Of a stretch of DNA of 64,000 nt, positions 2,669 to 41,930 are shown piece by piece. Under the pieces are notes generated by a model that ran no database searches, was not told the DNA's origin, and worked only from the letters and a program-made list of their open reading frames with translations. Position 1 is the stretch's first letter. Each line of letters opens with the position of its first letter. Both the position numbers and the translations under genes were made by a program. Source of the DNA: an uncultured Gemmatimonadaceae bacterium (GTDB lineage: Bacteria; Gemmatimonadota; Gemmatimonadetes; Gemmatimonadales; Gemmatimonadaceae); the NCBI GenBank assembly GCA_963829055.1, contig CAWHHI010000005.1, positions 288,001 through 352,000 of the forward strand. The letters run 5' to 3'.

Positions 2669-3646
2669 GTGTCCACCAGCGTCTTCCGCGAGCTTCCGGG
2701 CCTGAGCGAGGCGTGGACGGTCACGCGAGGTGCCAACGCCGTCGTGGCCGTCGTCGACGAAGCGGTCGACGTCCACCACCATCCGGAGTTCGTCGGCCGA
2801 GTCCTGCCCGGTAACGATGAAGCGCGTCAGGCAGCGGGCGATGGTTCGTACGTCCATCGCCCGCACGGCGCCAAGGTCGCCGGTATCGCGTTGGCCAACG
2901 GTCCGCACGTCACCGGCGTCGCACCGGAAGCGCAGCTCCTCCCCGTCGCCGTGAACGCACTGAGCCGCATCATCGGTCACCCCTCCGAAGCCGATGCGAT
3001 CCGATGGGCGGCGGCCCACGGTGCAGATGTCATCTGCTGCGCGTGGGCACCTCCGGACCTGACGGGAAAACGGGGACGTCTCCCGTCACGGACGCGTGCG
3101 GCGCTGGACTACAGCATCGAGTTCGGACGCGGCGGCAAAGGCTGCGTCATCATCTTCTCCGCTGGAAATGTCGGCCGCGACATCAGGCTGAACGGCTACG
3201 CCAGTCACCCCGGCGTGATCACCGTGGGCGCCTGCAACTGCCACGGTACCCATCCGTCCTATAGCGGCTACGGCGAGGCGCTCTGGTGCGTCTTTCCGAG
3301 CAACGATCCCGGTGATCACGTCGGCGCGTGGATGACCTATCTCACGACGGCGCCCGTAGGATCGCTGTTGAATGGCGACGCCTACTACACCACGCGGTTC
3401 GGCTTCACCTCCGCCGCCTGCGCCGGCATCGCGGGAATCTGCGCGCTCATCGTCAGCGCGAATCCCAACCTCACCGCGCACGAAGTGAAGCAGGTACTCC
3501 GGAGCTCCTGCGAGAAGATCGACGCCTCGAGCGGTACGTACGACGCGCGCGGACACAGCCCGCTCTACGGGTATGGACGTCCGGATGTAGTGCGCGCCGT
3601 GCGCCTCGCACGAGAACATGAGAAAGCGCAAACCGCGTCCGTCTAG
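2669..3646 (+). CDS. S8 family (subtilisin-like) serine peptidase, no signal or propeptide
   Basis: VAVVD (Asp), HGAKVAG (His), FSAGN (oxyanion Asn), FTSAAC (Ser), C-terminal YGYGRPD. Confidence 0.9.
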   Translation: MSTSVFRELPGLSEAWTVTRGANAVVAVVDEAVDVHHHPEFVGRVLPGNDEARQAAGDGSYVHRPHGAKVAGIALANGPHVTGVAPEAQLLPVAVNALSRIIGHPSEADAIRWAAAHGADVICCAWAPPDLTGKRGRLPSRTRAALDYSIEFGRGGKGCVIIFSAGNVGRDIRLNGYASHPGVITVGACNCHGTHPSYSGYGEALWCVFPSNDPGDHVGAWMTYLTTAPVGSLLNGDAYYTTRFGFTSAACAGIAGICALIVSANPNLTAHEVKQVLRSSCEKIDASSGTYDARGHSPLYGYGRPDVVRAVRLAREHEKAQTASV

Positions 3647-3758: not shown

Positions 3759-5129
3759 GTGGAGCGTCACGGGATGAGGCGACGCATGAGTGATCATTTT
3801 GCCAGTATTGCTGACGCCCTGAGCCTCCGGTACAGGCTCGAACGAACGCTGCAGAGCGGCATGGCCGCTCACGTGTATCTCGCTGAAGAGCGTGCGCTGA
3901 GGCGGCGCGTCGCGGTGAAAGTCTTGCGCGACGAGATGGCCGCGACCGTCAACGCCGAGCGATTCCTCGCCGAGATCCGTGTGTGTGCGCGTCTCCGGCA
4001 TCCGAACATCGTCCCCGTGTATGAATCGGGCGAGGTCGACGGGTTACCGTATTTCGTCATGCCGTTCATTGACGGGGAAACACTGCGCACGCGGCTCGCG
4101 CGCCTCGGCCGCCTCCCGCTGAGCGAAGCGATTTCCATCGCCCAGGACATTGCTCGCGCGCTCGACTTCGCGCACCGTCACCAGATCGTGCACCGCGACA
4201 TCAAGCCCGAGAACGTGATGCTGTACGGTGGGCGGGCCCTCGTCCTCGACTTCGGCATCGCGCTGGCCATGGACACCGTGGAAGCATCCCGTTACACCAT
4301 GCCGGGGCTCACGTTAGGCACGTTGCCCTACATGAGCCCGGAACAGGTCGGCGGCGAATCACCGGTGGACGGGCGCAGCGACATCTACAGCCTTGCGTGC
4401 GTCATCTACGAGATGCTGAGCGGGCGTCCGCCGTTCACCGGATCGCTATCGGCGGTGATCCGGCAACACCTGGGCGCCCAGCCGCGCCCGCTCGCCGAGG
4501 TCTGTCCGGGGCCGTACCCCAAGATCGGGCGTGTACTCTTGCGTGCACTCGGCAAGACGCCTGACGCTCGCTACGACAGCGCCGGTTCGTTCATCTCGGC
4601 GCTCGTCGGCGCCGCGCCACGCGTGCGAGTCATCGGGCAACGTGTGGCGGTGATCTCGTTCACGAACCTCGGTCCGTCGCCGGCGATCGACACGTTCAGC
4701 GACAGCGTCGGTGAGGAGGTCGTCGCGGCACTCCGACCCATAGACGGAATTGCCGTGGTTGCAGGAAGCTCGATCGGCGACACTTCAGTCGACGTGCACC
4801 CCGCGGAGATCGCACGACGTCTCGGTGCCGACGTGTTGCTGTTCGGCAGCGTACGCAACGACGAGGCTGTCGGTCACGTCCACCTGTGCGCGGTTCTCCT
4901 CGACGGCCGAAGCGGTCGGACACTATGGGCCGGCGCGTTCGCCGGGCCGTGTCACGGTGGACCGTACCGGGAGTGGCAGTCGGTCATGCAGTTGGCCGAT
5001 GCGGTAGCCACCACGCTCGGAGTCAAGCGCAACGGGTCACCATGCGAGCGCAGATTCTGCGACGCAACGCGGCGCGGTGACCAGAATGAATCGAACCCAG
5101 GGTCCACGGGGCGGACGGCAGCGCGTTGA
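3759..5129 (+). CDS. Ser/Thr protein kinase with C-terminal TolB-like (TolB_N) domain
   Basis: VAVK, HRDIKPEN, DFG, YMSPEQ and SDIYSL motifs, followed by an RVAVISFTNL...VGEEV TolB_N-like segment. Real start may be the ATG at 3787. Confidence 0.9.
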   Translation: MERHGMRRRMSDHFASIADALSLRYRLERTLQSGMAAHVYLAEERALRRRVAVKVLRDEMAATVNAERFLAEIRVCARLRHPNIVPVYESGEVDGLPYFVMPFIDGETLRTRLARLGRLPLSEAISIAQDIARALDFAHRHQIVHRDIKPENVMLYGGRALVLDFGIALAMDTVEASRYTMPGLTLGTLPYMSPEQVGGESPVDGRSDIYSLACVIYEMLSGRPPFTGSLSAVIRQHLGAQPRPLAEVCPGPYPKIGRVLLRALGKTPDARYDSAGSFISALVGAAPRVRVIGQRVAVISFTNLGPSPAIDTFSDSVGEEVVAALRPIDGIAVVAGSSIGDTSVDVHPAEIARRLGADVLLFGSVRNDEAVGHVHLCAVLLDGRSGRTLWAGAFAGPCHGGPYREWQSVMQLADAVATTLGVKRNGSPCERRFCDATRRGDQNESNPGSTGRTAAR

Positions 5130-36149: not shown

Positions 36150-36475
36150 GGCGCGAGCCTGTTCGAACGTTGGCGGTGACCGCGGTGCCTCCGATGCGAA
36201 CCGGCTCGCCGAAGCCGACCAGGTTGACCTCGTTCCCGGTTAACGCGCCCCAGCCGCGCGTCCTGGTCACCGTGGCGGCGACGTCGCGGAAGTTGGCTGG
36301 TGAGAGCTCGTTCATGCACCCCAGCCACCGCCGTCCTTCGGCCCTTCGCAGAGCCTAACGAGTGCGGTCGCGCCGGGGAACGGGAGCGGACGGCGGAGAA
36401 CGGCATCGGCGACCGGACGAAGCCGCGCGAGCGGCTCATCGTGCGCATGGCATAATGCAGGTCGTGGCGTAGAAT
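36150..36475 (-). pseudogene. N-terminal remnant of an ADOP-type ABC permease
   Basis: ILRHDLHYAMRTMSRSRGF and ELSPANFRDV...VNLVGFGEPVRIGGTAVTAN, with internal deletions. Confidence 0.7.
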
Positions 36476-36635
36476 CGTCGAGGTCGAGAAGCGCCGCACG
36501 CGTCCCGACGACGAGCGCCGCCGGTACTATCGCATTACCCCGTTCGCCAACTCGGTCGCACGCGCGGTGGTTCGACGGCTCCTGCAGCTCGTGCGTCACG
36601 CGCAGGCGCGCGGTCTCACGCCACGAGCAGTCTGA
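36474..36635 (+). pseudogene. C-terminal half of a PadR family regulator
   Basis: IVEVEKRRTRPDDERRRYYRITPFANSVARAVVRRL...stop; no start codon or HTH. Confidence 0.75.
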
Positions 36636-36754
36636 CCTCTTCGAGCGTCGCCGGCGGGTTCGGAGCGGGCCATCAGCGGCGTTAGGCAGAAACCGAACGG
36701 GCGCGAGTTATTGCCTGTATTGCAGATGGCTAGGGACGGAATCGAACCGCGGGC

Positions 36755-37654
36755 TCAGCGGAGGAGTTCGCCGAGCCGCTTCATGTCGAGACGTCCATGG
36801 CCGATCTCGCTGTCGTGTCCGGGAATGCCGTCCGGCCGATAAGCGGACAGCCTCAACAGCTCTCGCACATCGCCCGGGGTCAGACTGGGCTTCTTTCGCC
36901 GCGCCAGCCATACCGCTGCGGTCACCATCGCGGCAGCGAAGGATGAACCGCTAAGGTACTTGTAGTCGAAGGGGTCGTCCCCGATCACGGTGAGAATGCT
37001 CTCTCCGGGCGCCGAAACCCGAATGTGCTCTCCCCTGTTCGAACCAGATGCCGGTCTGTCCTCCATGTTCGTGGCGCCGACGGCGATCACGTTAGGATTG
37101 GCTGCCGGGTAGATCGGTCCGTCGTCGGGATCGTTGCCGCTGCCCATTGCGGCGACGACTACAACGCCATTTCGCACGCACGCCGCGATGGCGTCGTCGA
37201 GATCGCGCTGGTTCGGTAGTGCGATGCTCAAGCTCAGATTGACGACTGGAAGCTTCAACCGGGCGACTTCGAACAATGCCGTTCGAACGGCTCCGAGGTC
37301 GAATCGTTCGTCGGCATCCCATGCGCTATACACGCGCACTCTCGCGGAGCAGCAGCCGTCCATCCTGCCGTCGGCATCCCCTTCGTAGTCGTCGCGCCGC
37401 GCGGCAATGACGGCAGCAACGGCCGCGGCGTGCGCCGCCCGAGAGGTACATGACGGCGCAGGTTTGCGAGTGACGCGGCCAGCCAGCTCCCGGTGGTTCA
37501 GGCCCTTCTCACCCCGGTCGATGACCGCGATTTCCCCCGGATCTGGTCCCGTGTCGAGCGTCGGCCAGACCGCTGGAAAGCCGCACCGATAGAGCGCCCA
37601 CTGCCTGTCCGGGTCGGGTCCCGTCTGGACTCCTGAACGCAATGGAGCAGTCAT
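36755..37654 (-). CDS. S8 family serine peptidase, no signal or propeptide, divergent motifs
   Basis: DPDRQWAL...VW mature-type start, IAVID (Asp), HAAAVAAVI (His), VVNLSL, YPAANPNVIAVGAT, SAPGE, SGSSFAA (Ser) and GHGRLD. Confidence 0.88.
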   Translation of the reverse strand: MTAPLRSGVQTGPDPDRQWALYRCGFPAVWPTLDTGPDPGEIAVIDRGEKGLNHRELAGRVTRKPAPSCTSRAAHAAAVAAVIAARRDDYEGDADGRMDGCCSARVRVYSAWDADERFDLGAVRTALFEVARLKLPVVNLSLSIALPNQRDLDDAIAACVRNGVVVVAAMGSGNDPDDGPIYPAANPNVIAVGATNMEDRPASGSNRGEHIRVSAPGESILTVIGDDPFDYKYLSGSSFAAAMVTAAVWLARRKKPSLTPGDVRELLRLSAYRPDGIPGHDSEIGHGRLDMKRLGELLR

Positions 37655-37726: not shown

Positions 37727-38711
37727 TCAGGGGAGTCCGAATTGTCCGCCCGTGCACCCTGTGCTTCCCGTCGTGCGCGCTGGCCTATTCGTGAGCTTGG
37801 GATACGGAAACTTGTGCCCGCGCCCGCCAAATACCTCGAGAAGGCTACCGCCATCACTAGCCTCAAACAAACGGAACAGCCATTTGAAGTCGACGTCGTC
37901 CTTCTGGAATCTGTGCTCGAACTCCTTCCATTCGAGCGGGTTGGTCTCGCAAAGGTTGGCGATCTTGAGTTTGATGACTCCTTTCCGTCGCCGCCGGGGA
38001 CCGGCCTAAGCGTAAGCGACGGATTCTCTTTACCCGGTTCCCAACTCTGAATTCGGATATTGATGGAAGCCCTCTGGGAGCGAGTCCGTTTTATTGGTCG
38101 CGTCCATATGATCGAGCCCGCCCAGTCAGCGTCGGGCTTGTCCCAATCGGCGGTCTTGACCTGTTGCGCGGCCGGATTGCTCCTGCCGGGTCCGCCGATT
38201 GTTGCTGCGGTGAGCTTACCTCCTCGCAGGAGTCGTCCGAACGTTTAGCTCTGTCGGGCGGGGTGGCTGAATCCAGGCCGACCTTGAGCTTGATCTGAGG
38301 CTTGTAGACGGAGAGGTCCGGCAAAGGGAGGGGGTCTGGGACAAGCTGGACGATCGATCCCTGTGACTCCTCCGGCTCGAAGAAGAGCTCTTCGCGGCTG
38401 AGTCGCCGCACGACTTGGAATCGTGGGCCATCGGCGACGAAGCCGGGCCTTACTCTCTTGGCAGATTCTGGCTCAAGGTTCGCCAGGTCCATCAGCAAGT
38501 ACGGAACATGACGCGCACCTACGTCTTCATCCTCATGGTGGTTGCGGACCCGCTCATTTGGCACGCAGGTCGGGATCAGAACGCTGACGGTCGTCTCTTG
38601 CCCGGCCGACTTCGCGCGATCAATCACGTACAGACAGACGCCCGCAAACTCGACGGACAACGTGACCTCGTTCGTTTCCGACACGGACGTGTTGCTCTTG
38701 GTAGTGGCCAT
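37727..38711 (-). CDS. Uncharacterised protein (module partner X2), frameshifted
   Basis: GGAGG RBS + ATG at 38711 (MATTKSNTS...VEFAGVCLYVI). Stitched frames end ...LKIANLCETNPLEW...DFKWLFRLF...FPYPKL...GCTGGQFGLP, stop at 37727. Confidence 0.65.
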
Positions 38712-38742
38712 CTCGCCCTCCCGGTCAATCGTGGTAGCCTGA

Positions 38743-41700
38743 CTAAGGACCCGTGTAGACGAACGCCCCCCACGCCCTCGGAGACCGCAACTCCGGACGC
38801 CGCGAGCTGAGCGCGTCCTGCTGCGCCAAGCGAAGCGCCTCGGCGGCGGGCATACCGCCTGCAAAACGGTTGTGAAACGACACCAGCAGCTCGGTTGTCG
38901 CCTCGTCGTCCACGTCCCACAACGTGCTCACCGTGGCCGGCGCGCCCGCGCGCAGGAAGCTGTACGCCAGGCCCGCGATCGCGCCCATACGACTCCGCCG
39001 CGGGTTGAGCGTGCTGCAGGCCGACAACACGACGATCTGCAGATTAGACAGACGCAGTCTTCCAATTTCCGCGGCGCGCAGTATTCCCACCTCGCCCGCG
39101 TGCTGGCTGGCGAGGGCGAGGTACGATAGCTCGGGTTGATCGCCGTTTGCCACCGCGTGACCGGCGAAGTGAAAGACGCCGTACTTCGGAAGGAGCTCCA
39201 GCACTGAATCACGCGACGCCTCGGCGCCCCTCAGGAGCTTCCCTCGACCGTACTGCCGAGCGACCTCCTCGGCCTCGCGGAACGCACCGGGAAGCGGTGG
39301 GAGCCCAGCCGCCGACGCGGCGTCGAGCTTCGGGATTCCCGATCACGAGCGCGCTCGAACGCGAGTTCCGTCGACGCAGCCCTCGACGCTGCGACGAGAA
39401 AGGCGGCGCTCGGCAGCGTACGAACCCGATAATCCTGGAGTACGTAGCGACCAGTCCCGCGATTCCAGAGCGCGGCGAACGGCACGCGAGCCAGCTCTCG
39501 ATCCGGCACGACGACAATCTCTCCACGCCCAGCCAGCTCGCTCGCGAAAGGAGCCACGAGCAGATCGAACAAACGTGCCCGCGCGCTCGCGGTATCGACA
39601 TCGGGGTTACCCATCTCGCGCGTGAACCGCTCAACGAGCTGGGCGACGGAGTCCCGACGCACGGCAACCGTATGGGGCCGCGACCCGCGGGAAGACACGA
39701 TCCACATCGCGAGCGTGTCGGGCAGCAGCGCATACTCCACGAACACCGCGTTGGCAGGCAGCAGCTCGCGGATGCGCGTTAGGCTCGCGGGCGTGCGCCC
39801 ATTACCGAGCGCGAGGCGCGCGTCGGGAGCCCACGCGGCGACGCGCCCACGCTCCAGATATGCAAACGCCGAGTCGGACCTCTTGTTGGCGAGCTCGATC
39901 CGTATTTTCGCGTCGAAGACGCGCTCGACCGTCTCATACAGCGTGGCTCGCGTCTCTGGCAAAGCGAAGGACGCGCTCTGTCGCTCGATGGCATCGATGG
40001 CTTCCTGCAGCCGAGCGCGGGCGCCAACCTCGTCGCCGGCTGACTGTGCTGCCACAGCCTCCTGGTAGAGCGCCTCCGCGAGGAACCCGTCGGTCTTCAG
40101 GCCCCGGTAAACGCTAGCAACGTGTGCCAGCGTCCGCATGGCGGCCTGTGGATCCTCGGCACGTTCGATTGCGCCGCGAACCAGGAGCAGATCCGCAAGC
40201 GTGCGATCATGCCCCGGTCCCGCGACAATGCTGTCCACCGATTGCAGCGCCTCATCGAGCTCCGCGCGGGCGGCGTTCAGGCGTCCGAGCGCGATGAGGT
40301 CCTTCGCCCGGAAGACATGCGCGAACGCGATATCTTTCGGGCGATTGAGCGTTGGCACTACTTCGAGCACCTCGTCCGTGATGGCCAGCGCGGCGTGGCT
40401 CAAGCCGTCGGCGCGTGCGTAGGTGGCAACGGTCATTAGGAGGTTAATGAGGTTGCGATGACCGGCGAAACGGTGAGAGACGCCGGAGCCCGACCAGCGC
40501 TTCGCTCTGTCCAGCGGGGATCTGTCCTGAGAACTGAAGCCCCTCTGCCAGGAGATAGGAGATCGCGCCGAGATTCTCCGGCTCGCCCGCTTTCTCGAAG
40601 AATGGCTCCGCTTCCCGGTAACGATTGTTCGCGACATCGTAGGCGCCGCGAAGGAGCTGTGACACGCCGAGGAACCAGAGGGCTTTGCCGACCAGCGCCG
40701 GCTCGTCTGGACCCGCAGTGCGTCGCACGTCGAGTAGCAGCCGGTCAGCAATGGTGTAGTGGCCACGAAAGATCTCTGTCGACCCGCGGAACAGCGCGGC
40801 CCATTGCGCCAGCGGTGACCCAGCGTCCCGAAGCGTTGGCTCCGCGTGTGCGAGTGCCGCCACCGCGTCGTTTTGCGCCCACGTGAAGCTTCCCGTCATA
40901 CCATCCACGAACTCCACGTGAGCGCGGGCGAGGGCGGCCAAGTGTACGCCGGTCCCGTGAGTGCGTCTCGAGCGCGCGGACCGCGAGAATCACCGTGTGA
41001 TCCGCGTTCATCGCCCCAAGCATCTCAGCGATCGCGCGGACTCGGCGCAACGCTTCCGCCGCAGCCGACGCTGTCGCCGCGCTGGACGGCGTTGCCCCAC
41101 CGGCTAAACAACGTGAACGAGGCGTCGCGAGCGCCCTCCGGCCAGCGCTCGACACGCGTGCGAAGCTCGCGACGCGCCGAACTGTCGTCACGCGCCGCCA
41201 ACGAGTCGATGGCTTCGGGCCTCGCGTCGGTGTCGAGACGTGTGCGAACGAGTCGTAGTCGCGCTTCCCCCTCGGCTCTCCAAGGTGCGCGGCGCTCGGC
41301 GGCCGTGTACCGCGTCCAGGCTCGCTCCGCATCCCTGAGCAGGTAGAGTCGCTCGAGGATCAGCGCGCGATTGAACAGCACTGCGGGGAGTGTACTGTCA
41401 CACGCCATCGCTCGCTCAATGGCGTCGAGCGCCTTGAGCATCGGGAGAAGCTGCTGGTCCCGCTCGGCCACCGCGAGGTAGGCAGCGGCGAGGTCATTGA
41501 GGAAACCGGCATTGTTCGGTGCAAGACGATTCGCGCGCTCCAGGCCTTCGACCGCCTGATCAATGCCTTGTGGATTCCCTTCCAGCGATCGAAGCGCGAG
41601 GAGCCCGTTCGCGTGGAGCGCGCGCGGAGTGGAGTCCGATCGGAGCCAGCGCCGCGCAGCACCGGCGATGCCGGCAATGTGCTCGAGACTCTTGGAACGT

Positions 41701-41930
41701 GCCGCGGGCGCCTGGCCGCACCGCTCGCGGGTAATGCGCGCTGTGCCGTCGCTCGTGTCGCACGGGTGCCAGTTGGCTTCGCCGGCCAGGGTCGCGGCCA
41801 TGAACCGGTCGCGGAGGAGCGCGCGCTCGAGCTGCTGGGCGCCGGATGCATCGTCGCGCGTGGCGCGACATGCGAGGAGTAGAACAAGGCCGGCGCACAC
41901 GCCGGTGCTCACCCCGGCGCGGCCGTTCAT
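38743..41930 (-). CDS. Large TPR + CHAT (caspase-like) protease, ~1060 aa, several frameshifts
   Basis: Pieces 41025..41966, 40444..40941, 39231..40766 and 38743..39204. TPR-like LNDLAAAYL and LFNRALILERL; CHAT motifs VVPDRELARVPFAAL, HFAGHA, LSACST and TLWDVDD. Confidence 0.88.

Follow-up and report, generated by a model that had tools for sequence, protein, structure and literature searches.

A widespread, unnamed protein family encoded beside TPR-CHAT protease genes, with a candidate new fold

Two gene sets of similar order were located in the window, by which we mean the whole 64,000-nucleotide stretch of uncultured Gemmatimonadaceae DNA analysed here. Each contains an unnamed gene, X1 or X2, that sits between a CHAT-domain gene (before) and an S8 subtilase gene (after), a context that the first-pass annotation of this DNA did not mention. 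In the first set, on the forward strand, the C-terminal part of TPR-CHAT protease 1 lies at 174-1478 (Pfam CHAT, E 5e-67), with its His (HFAGHG) and Cys (LSGC) motifs kept. The start of that gene falls outside the window, upstream, and is preceded by genes for an ECF sigma factor (L110:1373-2128; Pfam Sigma70_r2/r4) and a putative single-pass membrane anti-sigma factor (L110:2241-3164), whose product had no Pfam hit and whose likely role was assigned from position, a hydrophobic segment, and homologues. The X1 gene itself (1608-2636; 252 bits against the X1-family HMM) begins at GTG 1608. It is followed by an S8 subtilase gene at 2669-3646 (Pfam Peptidase_S8, E 4.5e-36; Asp, His, and Ser motifs kept), the product of which has neither signal peptide nor propeptide, and then by a Ser/Thr protein kinase gene at 3759-5129 (Pfam Pkinase); kinase matches at related loci indicate that in X1-type loci the S8 gene is often followed by a kinase gene.

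The second set is on the reverse strand. TPR-CHAT protease 2 (38743-41930) is spread over several frames, with Pfam CHAT and TPR_17 matches on the pieces, a lipoprotein-like start by eye (VLLLAC), and both the His and Cys motifs kept. X2 (37727-38711, starting at ATG 38711) comes next, and then an S8 subtilase gene (36755-37654; Pfam Peptidase_S8, E 1.6e-24), again without a signal peptide. The strong ribosome-binding sites claimed earlier are present: GGAGG at 1597-1601 ahead of X1 and GGGAGG at 38717-38722 ahead of X2. No sigma factor was found in the frames read upstream of the X2 operon, and the GTAAn16CGT motif was absent from the two stretches scanned upstream of the window operons. Just beyond the S8 gene, a short forward-strand frame (approximately 36420-36640) resembles the end of what we take to be a PadR-type regulator.

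Neither X1 nor X2 is a single open reading frame in the window. The frame of X1 switches near 1770-1895, 2123, 2328, and 2393, and that of X2 breaks near 38253, 38230, and 37978; with the frames switched, a six-frame reading recovered the motifs quoted in the first-pass annotation, all in place. Against P0001, an intact homologue of 309 residues, X2 aligned as three pieces at 89, 80, and 99% identity. Four runs on soil or rhizosphere yielded short-read contigs of relatives; these lacked the surplus bases at 38253 in 4/4 runs and those at 38230 and 37978 in 3/4 each. For X1, relatives' contigs lacked one base at 2123, 2328/2329, and 2392/2394 (depth 2-3), where the profile also shifts frame; the break region at 1770-1895 lay outside contig coverage, and 1756-2040 was barely covered. 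The same assembly carries rpoB in two frames (G000 C19:47991-52509), that is, with indel errors in an essential gene. Because relatives' contigs lack the surplus bases and rpoB is also split, we read the breaks as assembly errors: X1 and X2 look like real genes, not decaying ones. Automatic annotation had been expected to miss both genes; the breaks are particular to this assembly, and the homologues are whole open reading frames (the named records read 'hypothetical protein'). The proposed length of about 330 residues did not stand for X2, which in the window also contains surplus in-frame letters that near-identical contigs lack; the nearest intact homologue is the 309-residue P0001. Small surplus letters (15, 6, and 30 bases) with few substitutions cluster at 38067-38164 and 38519-38899, and are perhaps the consensus of mixed strains.

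Both genes have many relatives. The first part of X2 matched 50 proteins of 293-351 residues (675 candidates), and an X2 profile found 325 clusters (50% identity, E<=0.001), the best 150 of which yielded an alignment of 143 sequences (A2). A piece of X1 retrieved four intact homologues from 400 genomes of the same bacterial family; an X1 profile then matched 103 proteins among 8000 scored, and the X1-family alignment (A4) holds 94 sequences. Named records come from Gemmatimonadales, Gemmatimonadaceae, Longimicrobium, and Thermoanaerobaculia. No match to the family was present in Pfam, NCBIfam, PADLOC, or the PDB, and no description of it appeared in the open literature searched.

That X1 and X2 are one family, as first proposed, could be upheld only indirectly. 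BLASTP between the stitched sequences returned nothing usable, so the claim of kinship needed homologues. HHalign of A4 with A2 gave 1.4% (E 0.036), colinear across 215 columns; after trimming, the local alignment reached 3.3% (E 0.013), with a score matched by 3/40 block shuffles, and the global alignment reached E 6e-5. Neither family HMM scored the other family above 10 bits. Direct profile similarity alone is within chance, as would be expected if X1 and X2 were unrelated families sharing a neighbourhood or were decayed pseudogenes, and the X1 breaks that lie outside contig coverage would also suit the latter. Against this reading stands a bridging subfamily: a joint profile found homologues in 22/151 genomes of the class Thermoanaerobaculia, and an alignment of 21 of these (A6) matched A2 at 99.4% (E 1.8e-21) and A4 at 72.9% (E 3.1e-5). 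Since the bridge was itself found by the joint profile, a point in favour of separate families, we added a decoy test and a coupling-map test. An HMM built without X1-family members scored the window's X1 at 7.8 bits, above all 3004 decoy frames (top decoy, 5.6 bits), and placed 15/94 X1-family members above the top decoy. When the top 80 couplings of the X2 family were laid on those of the X1 family, 0/500 shifted maps did as well; for the top 40 the overlap was not significant (reached by 61/500 shifts). All eight motif pairs listed in the first-pass annotation fall into the same columns of the joint alignment (P0001/P0212, where P0212 is an intact X1-family homologue): G18/G9, H58/H52, P121/P103, G154/G139, N234/N235, D256/D249, P286/P304, and C301/C327. 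Given the bridging subfamily, the decoy test, a matching predicted strand order, and a common gene context, X1 and X2 are very probably distant members of one superfamily; with rpoB split as well, unrelated or dead genes are very unlikely.

A CHAT gene lies directly upstream of X in 70/71 informative loci, which are kin and not independent draws: 15/15 X2-type genome loci for which upstream DNA was available (of 16 fetched), 26/27 distinct X1-type metagenome loci (those of the 40 fetched that, once 5 duplicates were removed, extended at least 300 bases upstream), and 29/29 Thermoanaerobaculia loci examined (one a duplicate). Two more genome loci agree with the CHAT-X order, and in one further genome locus X and a gene resembling a TPR-CHAT start by eye are arranged head to head. 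The CHAT dyad is kept (His in 40/40, Cys in 39/40). A hydrophobic N-terminal segment is present in 7/9 full-length CHATs, several of them ending in a lipobox-like Cys by eye, whereas X and most S8 proteins have no signal- or lipoprotein-like start; the TPR-CHAT proteins are thus probably exported. The first strand of X comes directly at its N-terminus, and the protein lacks a membrane segment (a hydrophobic 19-residue window occurs in 0/143 X2-family and 1/94 X1-family members), in agreement with the reported absence of a signal peptide. Sigma and anti-sigma genes lie upstream in 4/5 and 5/8 long loci (9/13 in all).

Downstream, an S8 gene is next after X in 24/27 X1-type loci and in 8/12 genome loci with enough DNA; one more locus has a C14 caspase, 3/12 genome loci have no protease directly after X, and only 1/29 of the short Thermoanaerobaculia loci had an S8 match. 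The S8 subtilases behind X1-type genes start at the catalytic domain, without signal peptide or propeptide, which together with the frequency of the pairing would fit X as an inhibitor of the protease behind it, or as its propeptide supplied in trans. We consider this unlikely: some X genes have no S8 beside them, others have one whose product brings a long N-terminal part of its own (L008, L009), and such a role needs no invariance of His, Asn, Asp, and Cys. The I9 subtilase propeptide, a small alpha-beta fold, was tried as a candidate and gave no Pfam or Foldseek match for X.

Several members of the family depart from the usual form. In one Thermoanaerobaculia locus, X (L022:9215-10333, genome G710) is interrupted in frame, at about residues 75-140, by a dispersed repeat that lies within a coding loop and matches approximately 150 other places in the same genome. 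The product of the gene after X (L022:10275-11558) is rich in Cys, 427 residues long, and without a Pfam hit; it contains an HEIGH motif and may be a protease of a third type encoded with X. Three X1-family members (L024, L026, and P0209) run beyond the tail Cys into a long Lys/Thr/Ala-rich tail; P0209 carries PF07382, a histone H1-like domain.

The link from CHAT to X is loose in the other direction: the source genome has 12 CHAT matches, and the other CHATs inspected precede different genes. At G000 C8:45700-44100, C9:163500-164700, and C12:487800-489250, CHAT genes are followed by one kind of secreted, lipoprotein-like repeat protein (by eye), which suggests a second CHAT-partner pairing; behind a CHAT gene on C20 come a sigma gene and one that is anti-sigma-like. 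In one locus (L025:1-2094, genome G569), TPR-CHAT and X share one open frame of 1488 residues from stop to stop, which may be a natural fusion or a lost stop.

These observations bear on the possibility that X is a ligand or substrate of TPR-CHAT, freed on cell burst or exported, that switches on the CHAT of kin cells, its conserved residues forming a structural metal site. The X-to-CHAT linkage is tighter than any other, the single frame of L025 joins the two, the other CHAT genes of the source genome precede a different, secreted partner, and a protein has been proposed as the signal of the myxobacterial TPR-CHAT protein DdvA (PMC11506125). The CHAT link is near universal and the protease link patchy; a direct CHAT partner therefore fits the context better. 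X has no export signal, however, while CHAT is seemingly exported; the shared frame of L025 keeps a ribosome site and the GTG start of X; and no long fused forms were found among 50 matches searched at 267-2000 residues. We regard a ligand or substrate role as rather unlikely.

Structure prediction was performed on the intact homologues P0001 (X2 family) and P0212 (X1 family). The AlphaFold models were confident (pLDDT 90.1 and 93.5, respectively; pTM 0.91 for both), bore out the beta-rich core that had been suggested, and agree in the order of their strands and short helices. With E<=0.001 as threshold, Foldseek matched neither model to any PDB entry, and the pore-forming, I9, and nuclease folds first considered for X found no backing there or in its hydrophobicity. 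Model confidence dips in a linker before the tail (pLDDT 71 at residues 291-300 in one model, 64-68 at 311-330 in the other) and recovers on the tail strand. The flexible tail of the first-pass annotation was correct in part: looseness is confined to the linker preceding the Cys, and the final residues are predicted, from the models and from coevolution, to dock in the core, leaving no free tail. A cleavable or inhibitory tail is compatible with the loose linker, an invariant Cys with a core-packed flank, and the flanking proteases.

Four positions stand out in the alignments, and the claimed conservation of the terminal Cys and the His was borne out. The His (1761-1763 in X1, HTH motif; 38508-38510 in X2, RHV motif) is kept in 143/143 X2-family, 94/94 X1-family, and 19/21 Thermoanaerobaculia sequences. 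The Asn (2317-2319 in X1, ITNL; within NLC at 37949-37957 in X2, where the Cys is subfamily-specific and kept in 143/143) is kept in 141/143, 91/94, and 20/21, respectively. A further position is Asp or His in 258/258 sequences across the three subfamilies: it is Asp in all 143 of the X2 family, including this copy (37889-37891), and Asp in 86 and His in 8 of the 94 of the X1 family, with His in this copy (2360-2362). The tail Cys (2604-2606 in X1; 37754-37756 in X2) is kept in 143/143, 94/94, and 20/21 and sits a median of 8-10 residues from the C-terminus. An extra putative ligand differs by subfamily (Asp51 or Cys236; His/Asp50). Coevolution, computed on 204 sequences, set His58 opposite Asn234 as cross-strand neighbours (couplings L62-L230 and Y61-K231) and coupled the tail residues G303, G304, and F306 with Y22, V23, L120, L123, L260, and F264; further couplings were P284/P286-C301 and, in the X1 family, G247-V326 and R239-P324. 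From coevolution, His58, Asn234, Asp/His256, and Cys301 are predicted to come together in space.

Such a site could be catalytic in its own right. X might be a new-fold thiol enzyme in which Cys301, His58, and Asn234 form a Cys-His-Asn triad assisted by Asp/His256, whether a protease, a transferase, or a self-processing protein acting on the bond before the tail Cys. In papain-type triads His and Asn are likewise cross-strand neighbours, and the Cys/His/Asp/Asn set is that of inteins. No Cys other than the tail one is invariant in the X1 family, which leaves it without a partner for a conserved disulphide. We hold this reading to be doubtful: a helper position that admits only Asp or His, and the addition by each subfamily of its own Cys or His/Asp, suit a metal site, and no papain, Hint, sortase, or Ntn fold was among the Foldseek matches of either model. 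A different precedent is offered by bacterial gasdermins, which are about 300 residues long, beta-rich, encoded beside caspase-like or subtilase genes, and endowed with a short C-terminal peptide and a conserved N-terminal Cys. X resembles them in size, beta-rich core, gene neighbours, and C-terminal peptide, and could by analogy be a pore former released by loss of that peptide. It differs from them in sequence and fold (no gasdermin similarity in Foldseek, Pfam, PADLOC, or PDB sequences, as first noted), its conserved Cys is C-terminal instead of N-terminal, and its conservation pattern resembles that of an enzyme or metal site, making a gasdermin-like function extremely improbable.

We tentatively favour a third possibility, that X is a latent cytoplasmic metalloenzyme whose His/Asp(His)/Cys site is capped by the tail Cys until a protease cuts the linker. 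Positions that alternate strictly between Asp and His are typical of metal ligands; this swap, and the extra Cys or His/Asp, pointed us to a putative metal site in X, while the loose linker bearing the tail Cys, and the signal-less protease encoded next to X, suggested a cysteine switch. The steps would run as follows. The operon encodes, in order, an optional ECF sigma factor and membrane anti-sigma factor, TPR-CHAT, X, and an S8 or other protease. Exported TPR-CHAT would sense an outside cue and clip the anti-sigma factor, as its signal-like N-termini and the analogy with DdvA suggest, and the freed sigma factor would raise expression of the operon. In the beta-rich domain of X, the four conserved residues would meet, together with the subfamily-specific ligand. 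The signal-less S8 protease or caspase, sharing the compartment of X, would then cut the linker and open the site. X would thus be a cytoplasmic output, with the sensor split from the anti-sigma factor and the logic otherwise that of DdvA. Several observations speak against the cysteine switch: the fourth ligand is not universal (the putative ligand Asp occurs in 13/21 Thermoanaerobaculia members); the linker, of 9-51 mixed residues, has no conserved cut motif, the residue preceding the tail Cys being Asp in 77/143 X2-family members and hydrophobic in the other two subfamilies; and some loci have no protease after X, although CHAT is nearly always there. The X2 operon of the window, with no sigma factor upstream, likewise argues against the signalling-operon reading. 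A broader version is speculative and on balance improbable: X would combine a new fold with an enzyme class of its own, as a zymogen that its C-terminal Cys holds locked. It would serve as dedicated output of a cascade in two compartments (surface TPR-CHAT sensor, anti-sigma, sigma, and cytoplasmic S8 or caspase) by which Gemmatimonadota and Thermoanaerobaculia respond to threats, and might also be the partner still missing for sensors of the DdvA type.

For most bacterial TPR-CHAT proteases outside CRISPR, the signal, the substrate, and the output have yet to be found. X comprises several hundred clusters, paired almost one-to-one with proteases of this kind in two lineages that are abundant in soil, and it offers both a confident model with no solved-structure match by Foldseek and a four-residue site open to mutation. 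We conclude that X is a genuine family, widespread and unnamed, whose fold is a candidate for a new one and whose genes lie in signalling operons of a known kind.

The proposed working principle is that of matrix metalloproteinases, which are cysteine-switch zymogens in which a peptide Cys caps the metal until it is removed. In X the metal is putative, there is no HExxH motif, the predicted fold is another, and the Cys is on a C-terminal tail. Craspase (type III-E CRISPR) consists of Csx29, Csx30, and a sigma factor, Csx29 being cytoplasmic and RNA-guided. The systems are alike in that the TPR-CHAT gene has as neighbours the gene of a dedicated protein and that of a sigma factor; they differ in that no Cas7-11 occurs at X loci and X has no PDB or PADLOC match to Csx30. 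In Actinobacteria, ECF54 sigma factors are encoded near a subtilase, a TPR-CHAT protein, and a carboxypeptidase-regulatory-like domain (PMC7826278). Sigma factor, subtilase, and TPR-CHAT share a neighbourhood there as at X loci. ECF54, however, is described as having no anti-sigma factor whereas the X1 operon has an anti-sigma-like gene, its partner is a known Pfam domain whereas X has no Pfam match, and it belongs to Actinobacteria whereas X belongs to Gemmatimonadota and Thermoanaerobaculia.

The closest resemblance is to a locus of Myxococcus xanthus, in which ddvS is followed by ddvA, MXAN_7287 (function not known), and a presumed C25 peptidase gene (PMC11506125, PMC6061681). DdvA is a periplasmic TPR-CHAT protein proposed to start anti-sigma proteolysis, and its signal is an open question (PMC11506125). 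The DdvS-DdvA type of system has a CRISPR/CBASS island under its control by way of GTAAn16CGT promoters. An unsystematic look noticed no CRISPR or CBASS genes near X loci. The X operons encode the anti-sigma factor and TPR-CHAT as separate open reading frames where DdvA fuses them, and their protease is S8 or C14 where that of M. xanthus is C25. Both systems present, in the same order, an ECF sigma factor, a membrane anti-sigma factor (putative at X loci), an extracytoplasmic (at X loci, probably so) TPR-CHAT protein with a His-Cys dyad, an uncharacterised protein, and a protease.
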